Origin: an uncultured bacterium | Lineage (GTDB): Bacteria > Schekmanbacteria > GWA2-38-11 > J061 | Direction: 5' to 3' | Length of the DNA stretch: 37,836 nucleotides | Assembly (NCBI GenBank): GCA_964549305.1 | Contig: CAZJVM010000022.1 | Coordinates: 1 to 37,836, forward strand | Shown: positions 21,001-27,000 of the stretch, piece by piece | How the letters are laid out: the number at the start of each line of letters is the position of its first letter | Numbering within the stretch: the first letter of the stretch is position 1 | Program-made: the position numbers

Positions 21001-24000
21001 ATACCTCGCGATGACGGGGCTTGACGGTTTTGAATCAAGACAACCCGCAATGCTTTCGGGGGGAGAAAAACAGCGCCTTGCAATTGCGTCAATGCTTGCT
21101 ATGGAACCGGTTTTAATCTGCCTCGACGAACCCACCACCGACCTTGATCCGGAAGGCAAGGAAAGCGTCTTTAATGTGGTAAAAAAAATCAAGGAAGACA
21201 GGAACAGGACTATCGTGGCAGTGGAACACGAAACTGACGAACTCATTAATTCCGACAAGTGCATACTGATTAACGAGGGAAAAATAATCTTCCTGGGAAA
21301 AAGCGAAGAGATTTTTATAAAAACCGATATGCTCGAGGAATACGGAATCCTTCCTCCCCAACTTGCCCTCATTGCAAAACTTGCGGGTTTCGAAAGGCCT
21401 TTTCGCAACGCGGAAGAATCGGTTTCTTTCATAAAAGCAAAGGGATATTCCATCGACGGGAACGCCGTGGCAAATCTGAAGCAAAGAGATGAGGAAGAGT
21501 TTTCCGCCATAAGGAATTCAGAAATTGAGATAGAATTGGATAATGTGTTTTTTTCCTATGAAGGTGAAAAAGATATCCTCAAAGATATGTCAATTCAATT
21601 CAGGAAAGGCGAGATAACGGCTATTGCCGGAGGAAACGGAAGCGGAAAAACAACTCTTGTAAAGCATTTCAACGGACTGCTTTCTCCCAAATCAGGGAAG
21701 ATAAAGTTAATGGGCAGGGATATAAATGATTACAGCAGTATCGAGCTTGCGCAAAAAGCGGGATTCGTTTTCCAGAATCCCGACTGCCAGATTTTTTCCG
21801 AAACGGTAATGGATGAAGTGGCATTCACACCGCGCCTCCTCGGACTCGATGAGGAGGAAATCGAAAGGAGAGTGAAGGACGCGCTTGATGCCGTGGGACT
21901 TTCCGCCTATGCTGATTATGATCCATTTGTTCTCACAAAGGGCGAAAGACAGAAAATTGCCGTAGCATCGGTGCTTGCGGCGAAAAGCCGTATCATCATA
22001 CTCGATGAACCAACCACGGGGCTTGATTTCAGCGAGCTTAAGGGAATGATGGAGCTTCTTCTCGATTTAAACGGGCAGGGGCATACTATCATTATGGTAA
22101 CCCACTCCATGCACGTAATCACGAATTATGCAAAAAGATTGATAATAATGAATAAGGGGAAGATTGCTTTTGACGGCAAAACAGCAGACGCTGTGGCGGA
22201 CGAAAAACTGCTGTCTGAAAACAATATGAAGGCGCCTGAAGTAGTAAAAATATCCTCTTTGCTCGGATGTCCGCTGAAATCCTTTGATGATTTTAAAAAA
22301 GCGGTTAAAATAAATAATTGATGAAACATTTGGAGAGAATATTTAAGTTTTAGAATTTCTATAAGATTTATTAAAGTTTAAGGCCTCAAATTTTCATCTT
22401 TGGCACGTATATTGCATAATAGTTTTGATTATATTTTTTTTTAAAAACTAAAATAAATGAATAAAGGACCTGAAATACTTGTCGTAGACGACAACAAAAG
22501 CTTCAGAAGAGGTCTCAACCTCTCCTTCAGCGCTGAAGGTTACAGCGTAACCGAAGCCGAAAACGGCATTCAGGCGTTAAAAACTCTTAAAGAGGGAAGT
22601 TTTGATATTCTCATCAGCGATATCCGGATGCCGGGATTGAGCGGACTCGAACTTCTTGAAAAATTAAAGGAAATGGAGTGCGACTGCCCGGTAATAATGA
22701 TTACGGCGCACGCTTCAGTGGATGTTGCCGTTGACGCAATGAAGAAGGGCGCATTCGATTTCATCGAAAAACCCTTTAAATTTCAAGACATTGAGCTGAA
22801 AGTCAAAAAAGCCCTCGAAAAGCTTTCACTCGTTCGCGAGGTGAAAAAGCTTTCACGGGAAAACGAATATCTCAAGGACGAGGCGAAAAGCGAATACGAC
22901 TTCGAAAACATTGTCGGGAAAAGCAAAAAGATGCTTGAAGTCTATTCGCTCATAAAGAAAATCGCGGCAAGCAGTTCAAACGTGCTGATTTACGGCGAAA
23001 GCGGCACGGGAAAAGAGCTTGTGGCAAGGGCAGTGCATTACAGAAGCGACAGAAGCAACGCGCCTTTTATTAGAATCAACTGCAGTGTCTATCCTGAAAA
23101 CCTTCTCGAAAGCGAACTTTTCGGACATGAAAAAGGCGCCTTTTCAGGCGCTTCGAAATCACGCGTCGGCAGGTTTGAAATAGCAGACGGAGGGAGCATC
23201 TTTATCGATGAAATCGGCGAGCTTTCGGCGCCCGCACAGATAAAGCTTTTAAATGTCATACAGGAAAGAGAGTTTGAAAGAATCGGTGACAATAAGACAA
23301 GAAAGGTAGATGTGAGAATAATCGCCGCAACGAACAAAGACCTTGCGGAATCTGTAGTCAACAAGCAATTCAGGGAAGACCTTTATTACAGGCTCAATGT
23401 CATAAGCATCACTCTACCGCCTCTTAGAGAAAGAAAGGAAGACATCCCCGCTCTCAGTTTCCATTTTTTGAAAAAATACGGAACAGGCAAAAACGCACTG
23501 AAAAAACAACCGATTACAGGAATTTCCAAAGACGCGCTGGACATTCTTTCGGCGTATCATTGGCCGGGAAACGTAAGAGAGCTTGAAAATGTCATAGAGC
23601 GCGCGGTAGTCCTCGCCGAAGGTTCACTTCTTGAAACTCCCGACCTTCCCATGGCGATTCGCACAGATAACCACGCGGAAAGAGTCATCGCGGAAAATGA
23701 CGGCGGAAACCTTCAGGACAAAATCGCGGATTATGAAAAGGCAATTATCGAAAAAGCATTCGAAAAATGCAACGGAGTCATTTCTAAAACAGCGGAAGAG
23801 TTGGGAGTGGAAAGAAATGCCCTTCGTTACAAGCTTAAAAAATACGGTTTCATCGCCCTTTTTCTTTGCGCCTTCCTCTATTCAGTCTTTATGCCGACTG
23901 CATACGCTTTTGACAGCGATGTAAAAGAGGAAACAACGATACTTTGGTCTAAAATATCTGATATTAAAGCGAAAATCAGAGATATATCAACACGGCAGAA

Positions 24001-27000
24001 ACTGATTGAGCGAACTTCAAAAGAAAAATCAGAACTGCTGGAAAGAAAAAAGCTGTCCGGCGGTTTTCTTCCCGCATCGGCAGACAATGAGATACAGAAT
24101 CTTTTAAAAGAGATACGCGACCTTTCCGACGAATACACATCCCTTCAGAAGGAGAAAATACGGTTATCACGGGAAATATCAGACTATTCGGAACAATATA
24201 TAAAAGCAGGCTCTCTCAGAATTAAGATGTTGACTGAGAACATCCGGAAAACTTCTTCCGGAGGGGAAACGCCGGAGTGGATTCAGGAATACAGGGAAAT
24301 AGAGGAGATAGAAAAGAATATCTCGCAAGTGACATATTCAGGAAAAAGCAGACTGGAAATCATTGACGGAAACATAGAAATAAGCATATTCAGAAATAAT
24401 CCAAATAATATAGACAGGATAACGGAAGAAATCGAATATATTGACGAAGGCGTAAGTATGCTTATCCAATCGCTCGATAAACTCCATTCAAGACTGGAAT
24501 ATCTTTACAACGTAAAGGAAGCTAAGGAAAGACTAAGTGCTATGTATCGCCGGATTCACTCGGGCGACCGCCTGAAACCCTCTGAACTTGCAGCGGTTTC
24601 AAATCTTGAAAAAGACATAAAATCCCTCGAAGATGAAATTGAAATAATTAAGAATGATATCTCCTTGTCTGAGATAAAGATAAAAGAATTCAAAAAAAAA
24701 TATGCGGAATTAGAAGAAATGATATCCTCATATGAAGACGAGAATATAATAACGGAAAACAAGAGAAAAGAAAACCTGTTGATTCCCGCAAAATCAGAGA
24801 AGTAGCGAAAAATTTTTTTTCATCACCGAAAAAAAATTTTCACCCTTTATAGCTCAAACACATCCTAAAATCGCAGAAATACTTTCACAAAAAGGTTTAT
24901 TTCTCACATATTCAATAAGTTAGAATTTTCTATTTATCCCAAAAAAACTTGGCACGAATTTTGCAATATAAAAAGCGACTTAATACAGGACTTGTTTAGT
25001 CCGGTTTTATGAGGAGAATTAACAATATGGCTTTAATTTTAAAAAATAAAACCCGCGCCCGCCGGTCAGAGAAACGCCGTAAAGGTTACGGCAAAAACCT
25101 TCGCGTCTCTCCCTGCAAAAAGAACGATTGGGTATTCTCTGTTTCCGGCGGACGTTTTTTCAATAGAGGAAATTTTACCCTCCTCCACCTAACAGGATAT
25201 TGCGACTGCCTGCATTTAAAAGACGGATACCCTCCTGGCCCAATGCAGGTGGTTGCTTTTCCTTTTTTAAATTTATTTAAAACGAATGTATCTGTTCGTT
25301 CCGCTAATGAAGCAGTTAAAAAAAGAATGCAGGGTAAGAGACACATTTTTTTAAACTCTTACTTTTAAAGGAGAAATGATGAAGATGAAAACTTTTTTAA
25401 TCACCTTTATTGTTTCATTATCGATGTTTGTATCAGCTTTTTTCATTACCGAAGTTGCAATTTCAAAATGCAGTAAATCGGTAACAAAGGGCAAAAACCT
25501 TTATGTGGCAAACTGCCAAAGCTGTCACGGCAATAAAGGAAAGATTCACAGAATCAACAGAGAAAGCAGAAGAAGCTTTATGAGGGATGTCCTTGGAAGC
25601 AAGGGCAGATCAGACAGACAGGACAAAGATAATGAAAACGGCGAAAACGAAAGAGATTTCGACAAAGATTCAGAAAATGCTTCAGGAAGTTCTTCAATGC
25701 CCGGTTTTAAAGGAACATTGAAAAAGAGTCAGGTTAATTCCATATACCGTTATCTTAAAAAACCTAAAAAAGCCTGCAACAACGGTGGTGGTAACAACAG
25801 TGGTGGAACAACAAATCCCACATACTCAAGCGACATAAGCAGTCTTCTGTCTTCAAACTGCACCGCCTGCCACAACTCTTCGTCTGCGGCAAAGGGAGTT
25901 GCACTCGATACTTACGCCGATGCCGTATCAAACGCTTCCGCGGCAAAAACAACTATCGATAGTGGCACTATGCCTCCGGGAGGTTCGCTTTCCGCCTCAC
26001 TTGTGTCAACATTTGATACCTGGGTGGCAAATGGCACTCCGCAATAATAAAACAGAAATAGCATAACAGGAAAAAGGAGGCATTTTATGTCTCCTTTTTC
26101 TTATTTTTGAATAAAATATGGAGGATTTCATATTGACAGTAATCAGAAAAAGAAATTTAATCAGAATTTTAAGGAAAAAATATGAAAATTACTTTGCCCA
26201 CGACATTCGAAGATTCATTCGTTGACGGACTTAGACAGATAAACGAAAATTCTCCTCAGGATTCACCTAAAATAGGAGAAGTTTACGGAAGTCTTCAAAG
26301 CTCCATTCTTGCTTCCGCGAGACCGTCGAAATATCTGCCCTCTCCCGATTTCAAGGGAATCAAAAAGCATATCAAAGCCCTGAATAGCGCGGGCATCGCT
26401 TTCTCTTATCTCGTGAATGCCCCCTGCATAGGGAATGTTGAATATTCCCAAACTGGAAGAAAAGAGATTGAAGAGCTTTTTGGCCGTCTTTGCGACAACG
26501 GAGTAACCCGAATGGTAGTTACCATTCCCTACCTTATAGAAATATTACGGGAAAAATTTCCCGGCATAGAAATCTGCGCGTCTTCAATCTGCTACATTTC
26601 AAACGTAAAAATCGCAAAACGCTATGAAGATCTGGGTGTAAAAAGAATCATCATCGACCCGGACAAAAACAGGGATTTCAACCTTATCAGAAAAATAGCA
26701 AACTCAGTTAATTGCGAAATTGAGATAATCGCAAACCATACCTGCATTCATCATTGTTCATATGAATACTACCACTACAACAATACAGGGCACGGGAGTC
26801 AGCGCGCGGAAAGAGTACGGGAGAAACCTTACAATCAATACAACCTGCTTTCCTGCACGCTGAAGAAGCTCGAATCTCCCTGGGAATTTCTCGCGTCTCC
26901 CTGGATACCGCCTGCAGACACAGGCGTTCTGAAAGATAAGGGTGTAAACTGGCTTAAACTTGCCGGCAGAGGGTCATCATCAGAAACTCTTCTTAAACTT

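Follow-up and report, generated by a model that had tools for sequence, protein, structure and literature searches.

We analyzed a gene that may be a natural in-frame fusion of an NtrC-class response regulator with a Sec-type signal sequence and a helical periplasmic protein of about 300 residues. In our favored reading, to which we give a probability of roughly 45%, the product would insert into the membrane with its N-terminus in and its C-terminus out (N-in/C-out), the tail would be exported, and signal peptidase would then cleave the protein. In other words, this sigma-54 activator is probably synthesized at the membrane, where it may also be cut. The gene lies in a window of 37,836 nt (the whole stretch of DNA that was analyzed).

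An NtrC-class activator that continues past its HTH

The gene and its regulator domains are as follows.

22457..24805, + strand: activator gene ORF with an ATG start; 782 aa, 89.0 kDa; NtrC-type response regulator, hydrophobic segment and predicted helical tail
22475..22804, + strand: REC domain, residues 7-116 (Pfam Response_reg, E = 4.2e-32)
22910..23410, + strand: sigma-54 interaction AAA+ domain, residues 152-318 (Pfam Sigma54_activat, E = 2.7e-71, full profile)
23135..23152, + strand: GAFSGA, natural variant of the GAFTGA loop, residues 227-232
23426..23680, + strand: AAA+ lid, residues 324-408 (Pfam AAA_lid_14)
23723..23845, + strand: Fis-type HTH_8, residues 423-463 (E = 8.7e-14), ending in ...ERNALRYKLKKY

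Pfam confirmed the 782-aa frame as a REC/AAA+/AAA_lid_14/HTH_8 activator, as described in the first-pass annotation, but the GAFTGA motif that was reported there actually reads GAFSGA. Four of the five members of the family that we aligned have GAFSGA in this sigma-54 contact loop, and the G002 copy has GSFSGA. GAFSGA also occurs in DVU3305, which is listed as a regulator with assigned targets in Table 1 of PMC4641369.

The N-terminal 464 residues are supported as an intact NtrC-class activator by both their domains and their residues. In the alignment of the five members, REC residues D11, D12, D55, T83 and K105, the Walker A motif (GESGTGKE), the Walker B residues (D251 and E252), and HTH residues L449-G464 are all invariant, and all of the catalytic and phospho-acceptor residues are unchanged. 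Residues 1-464 match the AtoC model (5.8e-152 over 6-465) and NtrC (1.4e-129). Because all of the scores fall below the equivalog cut-offs, the 782-aa activator is not the orthologue of any named regulator. The genome also encodes rpoN (Sigma54_DBD match, E = 4.3e-62, on G000:C41). What sets this protein apart is the 318 residues after the HTH: the 14 other REC-type paralogues in the same genome stop at most about 12 residues past it.

Sigma-54 promoters and a candidate enhancer

The nearby sites, and the genes that follow them, are listed here.

22401..22415, + strand: perfect sigma-54 promoter TGGCACGTATATTGC; 41 nt separate its end from the activator's ATG
24807..24841, no strand assigned: two palindromes, GAAAAATTTTTTTTC and GAAAAAAAATTTTC, with starts 21 nt apart, located 2 nt past the stop codon; candidate enhancer (UAS)
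24950..24964, + strand: perfect sigma-54 promoter TGGCACGAATTTTGC; the palindromes lie 110-145 nt upstream
25027..26047, + strand: start of the probable target operon, with a small conserved ORF at 25027-25368 and a c-type cytochrome gene at 25376-26047

There are three perfect matches to the sigma-54 promoter in the window, as compared to 0.02 expected. A perfect promoter is found at the same place before the activator gene in G001, G002 and L017 as well, so it is present at all four loci with DNA. The second promoter is a perfect match to TGGCAC-N5-TTGC, and the arrangement with a palindrome pair 110-145 nt before it is conserved in 3/3 genomes. The pair is the only one of its kind in the 2.94-Mb genome, and the same pair is found in G001 and G002. 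In G002, a kinase gene, the activator-tail gene and an outer-membrane-protein gene follow one another in that order, and the last of these lies between the activator gene and the enhancer pair, which are about 1.9 kb apart.

Since a conserved palindrome pair follows the stop codon, the activator probably drives the downstream cytochrome c operon (the genes after the cytochrome encode U32, NAD_binding_4/SCP2 and YceI). Judging from adjacency, the activator would bind the palindromes. DNA binding by the activator seems to be required, given the invariant HTH residues and the unique, conserved pair.

The tail is conserved within one family

The fusion is kept in five sequences, all from one family labelled Candidatus Schekmanbacteria. 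Besides the protein described here, these are the G001 orthologue (785 aa; 63% identity overall and 46% in the tail), the G002 orthologue (785 aa; 52% overall and 33% in the tail), and the metagenome proteins P0005 (783 aa; tail identity 55%) and P0004 (783 aa; close to the G002 copy). The two orthologues had already been reported to align through the tail. The reported absence of the long-tailed form from G003 and G004 held up as well: with the tail as the query, neither of them gave a match, nor did any of 36 genomes from other phyla (the matches were in 3 of the 41 genomes, counting this one, G000). Restriction of the feature to one family was also borne out by a scan of 1.84 billion representative proteins, which found the tail, fused or free, nowhere beyond that family. 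A fusion origin would be backed by a homologue of the tail that stands alone and has a signal peptide of its own, and the protein scan found none.

The genome is in draft form (169 contigs), so we considered whether the fusion might be an artefact, with an ordinary activator run into the gene behind it through a faulty assembly, a frame error, or gene decay. This explanation is close to refuted. The junction between the HTH and the hydrophobic segment is in frame, aligns without gaps, and is placed the same way in all five sequences, which are from separate assemblies, and tail identity of 33-55% without stop codons speaks against decay. (The genome is 41% G+C.) A frame of about 320 codons that is open in five independent assemblies, with this level of identity, is more than chance. 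From the alignment of the members, which has conserved blocks such as LHSRLEYLY..KEAKERL, the tail evidently evolves under purifying selection.

A hydrophobic segment after the HTH

The remainder of the protein has two parts.

23849..23908, + strand: hydrophobic, signal-peptide-like segment F465-A484 (FIALFLCAFLYSVFMPTAYA), from hydropathy and flank anatomy, with a putative signal peptidase site after A484
23909..24802, + strand: tail, residues 485-782 (298 aa, 34.8 kDa, pI 5.2, no Cys), with no family match

The segment of about 20 residues that had been noted after the HTH corresponds to the only 19-residue Kyte-Doolittle window above 1.6 (start 464, value 1.91). The same peak reaches 1.99 in G001 and 2.25 in G002, and the second-highest peak is at most 1.37 in any of these three proteins. 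In all five members, and not just in the two orthologues where this was first seen, a single strong hydrophobic segment comes directly after ...LRYKLKKYG, so that the linker to the recognition helix is of zero residues. The preceding flank has five basic residues (R453, R457, K459, K461 and K462), while the flank on the C-terminal side is acidic or neutral (positions +1 to +5 are acidic or polar). The simplest reading of these flanks is N-in/C-out insertion with the tail outside, and we think it quite likely that the primary product of the insertion step is a C-terminally tethered sigma-54 activator. The membrane tether with an outside tail that was proposed in the first-pass annotation is favored by the hydropathy peak and the flank charges, but the signal-peptide anatomy (see below) and the zero linker count against a stable anchor.

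Alternatively, the hydrophobic helix might not cross the membrane. It could be buried, or lie peripherally on the membrane, with the tail as a cytoplasmic coiled coil that either works on the AAA+ ring in cis, much as PspF is acted on by the PspA hairpin, or serves as an oligomerization rod. The tail has no cysteines and its composition is charged and coiled-coil-like. A structure model predicts that it is all-helical, with five long helices that form two hairpins, and the best structural matches to this model are cytoplasmic helical hairpins. But the Z scores for these matches, 11.8 for HP0958 (112 residues aligned) and 11.6 for PspA 1-144 (rmsd 2.0, 125 residues), fall short of the value of about 13 below which the tool itself advises caution with helical models, and they are tied with those of Rad50, the dynein stalk, and designed bundles. 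Also, Pfam found only noise beyond residue 463 (E >= 0.02), in agreement with the earlier claim that the tail lacks a family match, and PspA_IM30 was absent from the Pfam matches of the 782-aa protein even at E <= 1. Finally, the segment is uniformly hydrophobic (19-residue Kyte-Doolittle values of 1.9-2.3) and is the sole such peak in an otherwise soluble protein, and the charge asymmetry across it fits insertion. We consider a segment that does not cross the membrane to be improbable.

Signal peptide or stable anchor

If the segment does insert, then its anatomy bears on whether it is cleaved. The hydrophobic core is just 13-16 residues long, and each of the five members has a proline at -4 to -7 (in G002, the core is 13 residues before P and K). 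The residues at -3/-2/-1 are A-Y-A here and A-L-S, S-F-G or L-Y-A in other members, in each case 20 residues past KKYG. With the n-region-like basic stretch (RYKLKKYG), the short core, and the small -3/-1 pattern, all five members fit the features of Sec signal peptides, although the segment starts at residue 465 of 782, unlike the N-terminal position of Sec signal peptides. The segment has the lowest identity of any part of the protein (25-35% among members), and the signal-peptide-like features are kept nonetheless. The five sequences come from closely related organisms (3-4 species), so the -3/-1 pattern that they have in common could reflect shared descent and not selection. We also applied a crude, home-made signal-peptide rule to the members and to the hydrophobic segments of the same genome. 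All five members pass, versus 12% of internal segments (232/1958) and 34% of N-terminal segments (226/664), which is only about a threefold enrichment of N-terminal over internal segments. Overall, the anatomy is that of a signal peptide rather than a long anchor helix, which suggests that the tail may be cut off.

A close rival is that the segment is a stable, uncleaved type II membrane helix and that, as with ToxR or CadC, the activator functions without leaving the membrane. The periplasmic helices would then sense an envelope signal or drive oligomerization, as a second input beside REC phosphorylation. An uncharged stretch of 21-23 residues, as seen in three of the four distinct sequences, fits a stable membrane helix too. 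The lone strong hydropathy peak, flank charges that fit N-in, and a tail with conserved blocks under purifying selection would also be expected, and membrane-integral activators are common (87 of the 120 long homologues listed). Furthermore, with the candidate enhancer 2 nt past the stop codon in G000, a protein that is completed at the membrane would be born beside its site. But the gap of about 1.9 kb to the enhancer pair in G002 implies that closeness to the site is not general. The short core and the proline and small-x-small pattern at one aligned position in every member also argue against a stable anchor. With no linker between the HTH and the segment, DNA binding while anchored looks sterically hard; as described in PMC5430869, CadC needs a long disordered linker of about 50 residues (108-159) before its membrane helix. 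We view a stable anchor as somewhat unlikely.

Another way to make an exported tail would be to encode two proteins in one frame, with a separate secreted protein that begins at an internal start just upstream of the segment. A start there would yield a textbook signal peptide, and each genome has some in-frame TTG or GTG at most 20 codons before the segment. However, no such codon is conserved in position (V451 is GTG, GTT and GTG, and L449 is TTG, TTG and CTT), synonymous sites vary freely, and we did not find a conserved Shine-Dalgarno sequence, or a sigma-70-like promoter site on the + strand of 23322-24363. And because no stop codon intervenes, the full-length product would remain. We consider this scenario very improbable.

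A proposed mechanism

What the data show are the domains, the promoters, the palindromes and the conservation; that the protein inserts into the membrane, is cleaved and released, and acts on this target is our inference from the sequence. In the favored reading, the basic end of the HTH (RYKLKKYG) would double as the signal sequence's n-region. On emerging from the ribosome, the hydrophobic segment would insert N-in/C-out, and the tail would be exported. Signal peptidase I, which the genome encodes, would cut after the small-x-small site (A-Y-A|F here). The products would be a 35-kDa periplasmic protein, now free, and a 54-kDa activator still held by a 20-residue remnant. Cleavage of a signal sequence behind 464 folded residues is unusual, and we know of no natural precedent in bacteria, though we made no search for one. 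A site-2 protease could then clear the remnant and free the activator for DNA: G000 has three Peptidase_M50 (site-2 protease) homologues, and RseP is described as removing remnant signal peptides (PMC8144685, PMC10470546). The freed and phosphorylated activator would bind both palindromes and open the sigma-54 promoter at 24950, which would turn on the cytochrome c/U32 operon. The likely kinase, encoded on G000:C60, is the orthologue of the histidine kinase that adjoins the activator gene in G002.

If processing is constitutive, then the fusion has no obvious benefit. A more speculative version, which we consider doubtful, is that the protein is a pro-activator. The recognition helix of this membrane-tethered precursor would be masked because it runs into the bilayer, and for release the tail would first have to be removed, either by signal peptidase or by a protease sensitive to the tail's state, after which a site-2 cut would be needed. 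If so, an envelope signal and REC phosphorylation would both be needed (an AND gate). It would be the first sigma-54 activator under regulated intramembrane proteolysis, and a bacterial counterpart of membrane-bound transcription factors of the SREBP/ATF6 type.

Comparison with known systems

Over residues 1-464, the protein resembles response regulators of the NtrC/AtoC/ZraR class from end to end (REC, AAA+ and HTH_8), and sigma-54 promoters and an upstream palindrome pair are present, as is typical of that class. It differs from them in its GAFSGA loop and in the 318 residues past the HTH. ZraP (with the sigma-54 activator ZraR) and CpxP are small, all-helical periplasmic proteins that are encoded with two-component systems and modulate them, but they are separate genes of about 150 aa and are not fused to the regulator. 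Neither Pfam nor the structural matches of the tail model linked the tail to ZraP or CpxP by sequence or fold.

In the inferred topology, which is the same as that of ToxR and CadC, the DNA-binding part is N-terminal and cytoplasmic, a single segment spans the membrane, and the C-terminal part is periplasmic. Also, as with ToxR and CadC, the regulator gene adjoins the target operon (here, the proposed target). But ToxR-like proteins have an OmpR-type winged helix and work with sigma-70 polymerase, without phosphorylation, while this protein combines REC and an AAA+ motor with a Fis-type HTH and lacks a linker. (Pfam found no Trans_reg_C match in the 782-aa protein, and its DNA-binding domain is the HTH_8 at 423-463.)

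RseA and FecR, which undergo regulated intramembrane proteolysis, are also N-in/C-out single-pass proteins (as we propose here), and their cytoplasmic part is freed once the periplasmic part is gone. Unlike this protein, though, RseA and FecR do not activate transcription themselves but are anti-sigma factors or sigma regulators.

Membrane-embedded sigma-54 activators as such are not new; what is unique here is where the putative anchor sits. In 87 of the 120 listed long homologues, membrane-type segments lie N-terminal of AAA+, and like this protein, these 87 are predicted to be in the membrane. These include types with 2 TM and HAMP (about 733 aa), with dCache (about 971 aa), or with a polytopic membrane part (about 950 aa). 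Our literature search found no paper on either N-terminally embedded or HTH-distal membrane sigma-54 activators. In the N-terminally embedded types, the membrane part precedes AAA+ and replaces the REC input, and the HTH stays free; here, the membrane segment comes after the HTH. Just 5 of the 120 have a segment C-terminal of the HTH, and all 5 are from the Schekmanbacteria family. What is new is the putative anchor after the HTH, with a tail that appears to be exported.

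The regulator part of the protein

The activator gene lies on the forward strand:
22457-24805, +, ATG start, 782 residues: NtrC-type response regulator, hydrophobic segment (F465-A484) and tail (residues 485-782)

Pfam finds Response_reg (residues 7-116), Sigma54_activat (152-318, E = 2.7e-71), AAA_lid_14 (324-408) and HTH_8 (423-463). Just as the first-pass annotation had stated, no family matches past the HTH: after residue 463, Pfam gives noise only (E >= 0.02). Residues 6-465 match the NCBIfam models for AtoC, NtrC and ZraR over their full length, each with a score below its equivalog cut-off, so residues 1-464 form a complete, if generic, response regulator of the NtrC class. 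The motif GAFTGA that had been reported is not there, however. The family has five members (the window protein, the copies from the same-family genomes G001 and G002, and the metagenome proteins P0004 and P0005). Their contact loop for sigma-54 is GSFSGA in the G002 copy and GAFSGA in the other four. GSFSGA is also present in one other paralogue of the window's own genome (G000), and DVU3305 of Desulfovibrio, which has GAFSGA, is listed with assigned targets in Table 1 of PMC4641369. This variation is not unusual, and the activator fits the NtrC class in every feature we tested except for the exact letters of GAFTGA.

The full-length AlphaFold2 model, which was built from 5 sequences, is of low quality: its mean pLDDT is 53.8, and the AAA+ region is left unfolded. 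The model has a single helix (452-478) that runs from the HTH into the hydrophobic segment, with pLDDT < 50.

G000 also encodes one more long response regulator that resembles an activator (731-755 aa, with a degenerate GAFTGA region), at ~28880-31080 on the reverse strand of contig C12. Its orthologues are in two further genomes of the phylum, G003 (locus L010, on contig C1) and G004 (locus L011, on contig C57), and a gene for a HAMP/PAS histidine kinase lies ahead of it in G000 and G004. About 270 of its C-terminal residues appear to resemble LpxC.

A hydrophobic segment at the end of the HTH

A hydrophobic segment had been noted straight after the HTH, and the only 19-residue Kyte-Doolittle window above 1.6 does begin at residue 464 (peak of 1.91, versus 1.99 in G001 and 2.25 in G002). 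Only G464 separates the end of the HTH profile (Y463) from the start of the hydrophobic run (F465), so there is no linker. The other 14 REC-type paralogues in G000 end at most ~12 residues past their HTH.

The five family sequences align without gaps from G464 to the first conserved tryptophan. Each has a basic flank (RNALRYKLKKYG) ahead of a core of 13-16 hydrophobic residues, and a small-x-small triplet (A-Y-A, A-L-S, S-F-G or L-Y-A) at a fixed position, 20 residues past KKYG. A proline precedes the triplet by 4-7 residues, and an acidic or polar stretch (FDSDV, ENSEK, NDPDS or GNVDI) follows it. Sec signal peptides have an n-h-c layout and follow the -3/-1 rule; the activator's segment does both, and it looks like one of them. 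Under a crude signal-peptide rule of our own, applied to the ORFs of the genome, all 5 family segments pass, as do 226 of 664 hydrophobic segments at N-termini and 232 of 1958 that lie internally, but this is a sanity check and not a predictor, as it discriminates weakly (34% vs. 12%). Among the genes of the genome are those for signal peptidase I and for three homologues of M50 site-2 proteases.

The tail and its distribution

The tail has 298 residues past the segment (34.8 kDa, pI 5.2) and is free of cysteine. Its predicted structure has five long helices in two antiparallel hairpins (mean pLDDT 70.4). A Foldseek search of this model against the PDB gave no match at E <= 0.001, and the best score in the ESM Atlas (0.89, to unnamed clusters) was below the 0.9 line. 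A wide VIA-align search found generic helical hairpins and no specific relative: the top matches, HP0958 (Z = 11.8) and residues 1-144 of PspA (Z = 11.6), are both under the tool's caution line for helical models.

Among 1.84 billion representative proteins, a phmmer search with the tail found two matches, a fragment of the window protein itself and P0004 (783 aa). Word-indexed searches added P0005 (783 aa) as well as P0006 and P0009, which are the proteins of G001 and G002 (labelled Candidatus Schekmanbacteria bacterium by NCBI). A scan of JGI metagenomes found one locus, L017, which is the gene of P0004. A profile search for a free-standing tail, at 175-564 aa, returned only the fragment of the window protein and no free form. 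Of the 41 genomes searched, the tail is in three (G000, G001 and G002) and is absent from G003 and G004, which belong to the same order, and from 36 genomes of other phyla, so the earlier statement that it is confined to one family stands.

Percent identity of each region to that of the window protein
Residues 1-464: 65-80%
Hydrophobic segment: 25-35%
Tail: 33-55%

Since the reading frame is open in all five sequences and identity varies by region in this way, we conclude that the fusion is real, is old enough for its copies to have diverged, and is limited to one small lineage. That it might be an artefact seems extremely improbable. As a variant, the architecture is real and conserved, with a very narrow distribution: it spans five sequences from one family of an uncultured candidate phylum.

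Gene order and the likely partner kinase

In G002 and at L017, the gene order is kinase, activator with tail, and beta-barrel outer membrane protein. This kinase has a periplasmic part between two transmembrane segments, followed by HAMP, HisKA and HATPase domains. In G000, an orthologue of the kinase (52-54% identity), at 4192-6039 of contig C60, adjoins an orthologue of the outer membrane protein (45%), with no activator between them, and the activator sits between an ECF-type transporter and the putative target operon. The C60 kinase is likely the activator's partner.

The gene order therefore differs within the family (compare 3183-6870 of C60 in G000 to the loci L013 and L017). On C60, 200 consecutive N fall within the gene for the outer membrane protein. 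We also noticed three ORFs upstream of the activator gene:
17015-19687, -, 890-aa protein; separate Rossmann motifs for FAD/NAD(P) binding at residues ~15-48 and at ~473-512; no further family match; conserved in G001 (884 aa, 7859-10513 of locus L014)
19812-20600, +, QueT-type S-component
20354-22321, +, duplicated ABC ATPase, whose listed start overlaps the S-component by 247 nt

In G001, the genes for the S-component and the ATPase abut (10632-11420 and 11428-13149 of L014), so the true start of the ATPase is probably near 20600.

Sigma-54 sites and the putative target operon

The window contains three perfect TGGCAC-N5-TTGC sites, all on the + strand, while 0.02 are expected by shuffling. 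The first site ends 41 nt ahead of the activator's ATG, and the same perfect motif lies 33-38 nt ahead of the ATG in G001, G002 and L017, that is, at all four loci with DNA. The kinase gene upstream of the activator in G002 and L017 contains the motif at its 3' end; in G000, where the activator does not follow the kinase orthologue, the 3' end of that orthologue has no such motif. The other sites and the genes near them are:
24950-24964, +, second perfect sigma-54 site (the 24950 promoter)
25027-25368, +, small ORF past the 24950 promoter and ahead of the cytochrome c gene; 113 aa from an ATG after GAGGAG
26182-30540, +, probable target operon: U32, NAD_binding_4 reductase with C-terminal SCP2, unassigned 394-aa protein, YceI
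30918-30932, +, third perfect sigma-54 promoter (TGGCACGAGGATTGC), inside ORF 30544-31209 and ~310 nt ahead of ABC transporter genes (31240-33220)

Just past the activator's stop codon are two palindromes, GAAAAATTTTTTTTC and GAAAAAAAATTTTC, whose starts are 21 nt apart (the first is 2 nt past the stop). They lie 110-145 nt upstream of the 24950 promoter. The 2.94-Mb genome has 25 such dyads, and this is the only pair within 45 nt. The pair is also found downstream of the G001 activator gene, and in G002 it lies 111-129 nt upstream of a sigma-54-like promoter that precedes a cytochrome c gene. A palindrome pair ahead of a sigma-54 promoter is the classical layout of an enhancer. This layout, along with the invariant HTH, suggests that the activator binds DNA and drives the downstream operon; it is by adjacency that this activator is taken to be the one that binds the palindromes. 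The putative target operon would comprise the small conserved ORF, the c-type cytochrome, the U32-family protein, the NAD_binding_4/SCP2 protein, the 394-aa ORF, YceI and a hydrolase. In G003, the U32-to-ABC operon, including the core of the putative target operon, is present, and no activator, cytochrome c gene or sigma-54 promoter adjoins it.

We considered autoregulation via the same palindromes and rejected it, as there is no pair within ~300 nt upstream of the activator's own sigma-54 promoter in any of three genomes. Rfam gave nothing close to its threshold across 22300-25450. The small ORF at 25027-25368 has no Pfam family or Rfam match; it has counterparts at 83-406 of locus L016 and at 6611-7075 (-) of L013, and it shares the stretch ...SPC.KN..FSVSGG.F... 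with the G001 copy. The pairing of U32 with SCP2 is reminiscent of UbiU/UbiV/UbiT, the set for oxygen-independent quinone hydroxylation.

Anchor or internal signal peptide?

We infer the topology, processing and function of the activator from its sequence. The first-pass annotation proposed a membrane tether with the tail outside. Membrane targeting and an outside tail are still the best inference, but the proposed "anchor" could instead be an internal signal peptide that can be cleaved. ATP, a kinase and DNA are all needed by the N-terminal part, which must therefore lie in the cytoplasm, and hence the tail is outside if the single hydrophobic segment inserts. The charge bias across the segment agrees with N-in insertion and an outside tail, and we think that this topology is quite probable. 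A cytoplasmic tail, which would go against the charge bias, seems improbable.

If the segment inserts, signal peptidase might cut after it and the activator might then be set free, with clearance of the remnant by an RseP-type protease as a plausible route. (According to the abstracts of PMC8144685 and PMC10470546, RseP removes leftover signal peptides as well as small membrane proteins.) We tentatively favor this whole chain (roughly 45%), because of the conserved -3/-1 site and the short core, because DNA binding shows signs of selection, and because, with zero linker, an anchored protein would presumably force its recognition helix, with the bound DNA, up against the bilayer. For comparison, a passage of PMC5430869 gives CadC ~50 disordered residues between the DNA-binding part and the membrane. 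The close rival is a stable ToxR-like anchor whose tail senses or oligomerizes; it shares the outside tail with our favored reading but would have to work without a linker, and we view it as possible but doubtful.

Alternatively, an internal translation start could make a separate product. There are candidate TTG and GTG codons, but their positions are not conserved, variation at synonymous sites is free, and neither a promoter-like site nor a conserved ribosome-binding site lies close by, so an internal start is very unlikely. Slippage of the ribosome at the conserved AAA AAA of KLKKYG, which would give a short form, was also considered. It is unsupported, because the Lys-Lys belongs to the HTH consensus and AAA would be the expected lysine codon in an A+T-rich genome.

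The fusion could have a simple origin: an activator gene may have lost its stop codon, along with the start region of the gene after it, which coded for a secreted protein. The fusion might have been tolerated because processing would restore two products.

Comparison to known sigma-54 activators

Sigma-54 activators are classically described as soluble AAA+ machines. Surveys of their architectures have input domains ahead of the motor and nothing past the HTH; PMC3162934, in its available text, describes four basic architectures. The word "transmembrane" occurs 0 times in the available text of that survey or of PMC12316311, and neither describes a membrane segment there. A survey of Clostridiales states that most input domains of these activators (EBPs) lack transmembrane regions (PMC6615313, in part). 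In the papers searched, we found no sigma-54 activator with a membrane segment, but the supplementary EBP tables of PMC12316311 could hold similar ones.

In sequence databases, a membrane-bound sigma-54 activator as such is not new. Among the best 120 long homologues (at least 568 aa), which are a biased sample and not a census, 87 have membrane-type segments ahead of the AAA+ domain (two TM with HAMP, dCache, or polytopic). Another 28 lack membrane-type segments, and in 5 there is one past the HTH. Those 5 are exactly the activator-tail family, so what does hold from the original claim is the placement past the HTH.

Many long sigma-54 activators from metagenomes (P0014-P0122, mostly labelled Deltaproteobacteria or Desulfomonilaceae) have inputs ahead of the AAA+ domain with two membrane segments and HAMP, a dCache domain, or 8-10 membrane segments. 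They are predicted to be membrane-integral, and we found no paper on these membrane-embedded long activators.

The activator is not a member of the ToxR family, as it has a REC domain and lacks both the OmpR-type domain and the linker. Its family is distinguished by a membrane-targeting segment placed exactly at the end of the DNA-reading helix. If the protein is anchored, then a hexameric activator powered by ATP has to operate, together with its enhancer DNA, at the membrane surface. If it is cut, then a single gene supplies both a regulator and a periplasmic protein, 1:1, via an internal signal peptide. Either outcome would be new for the sigma-54 activator class.
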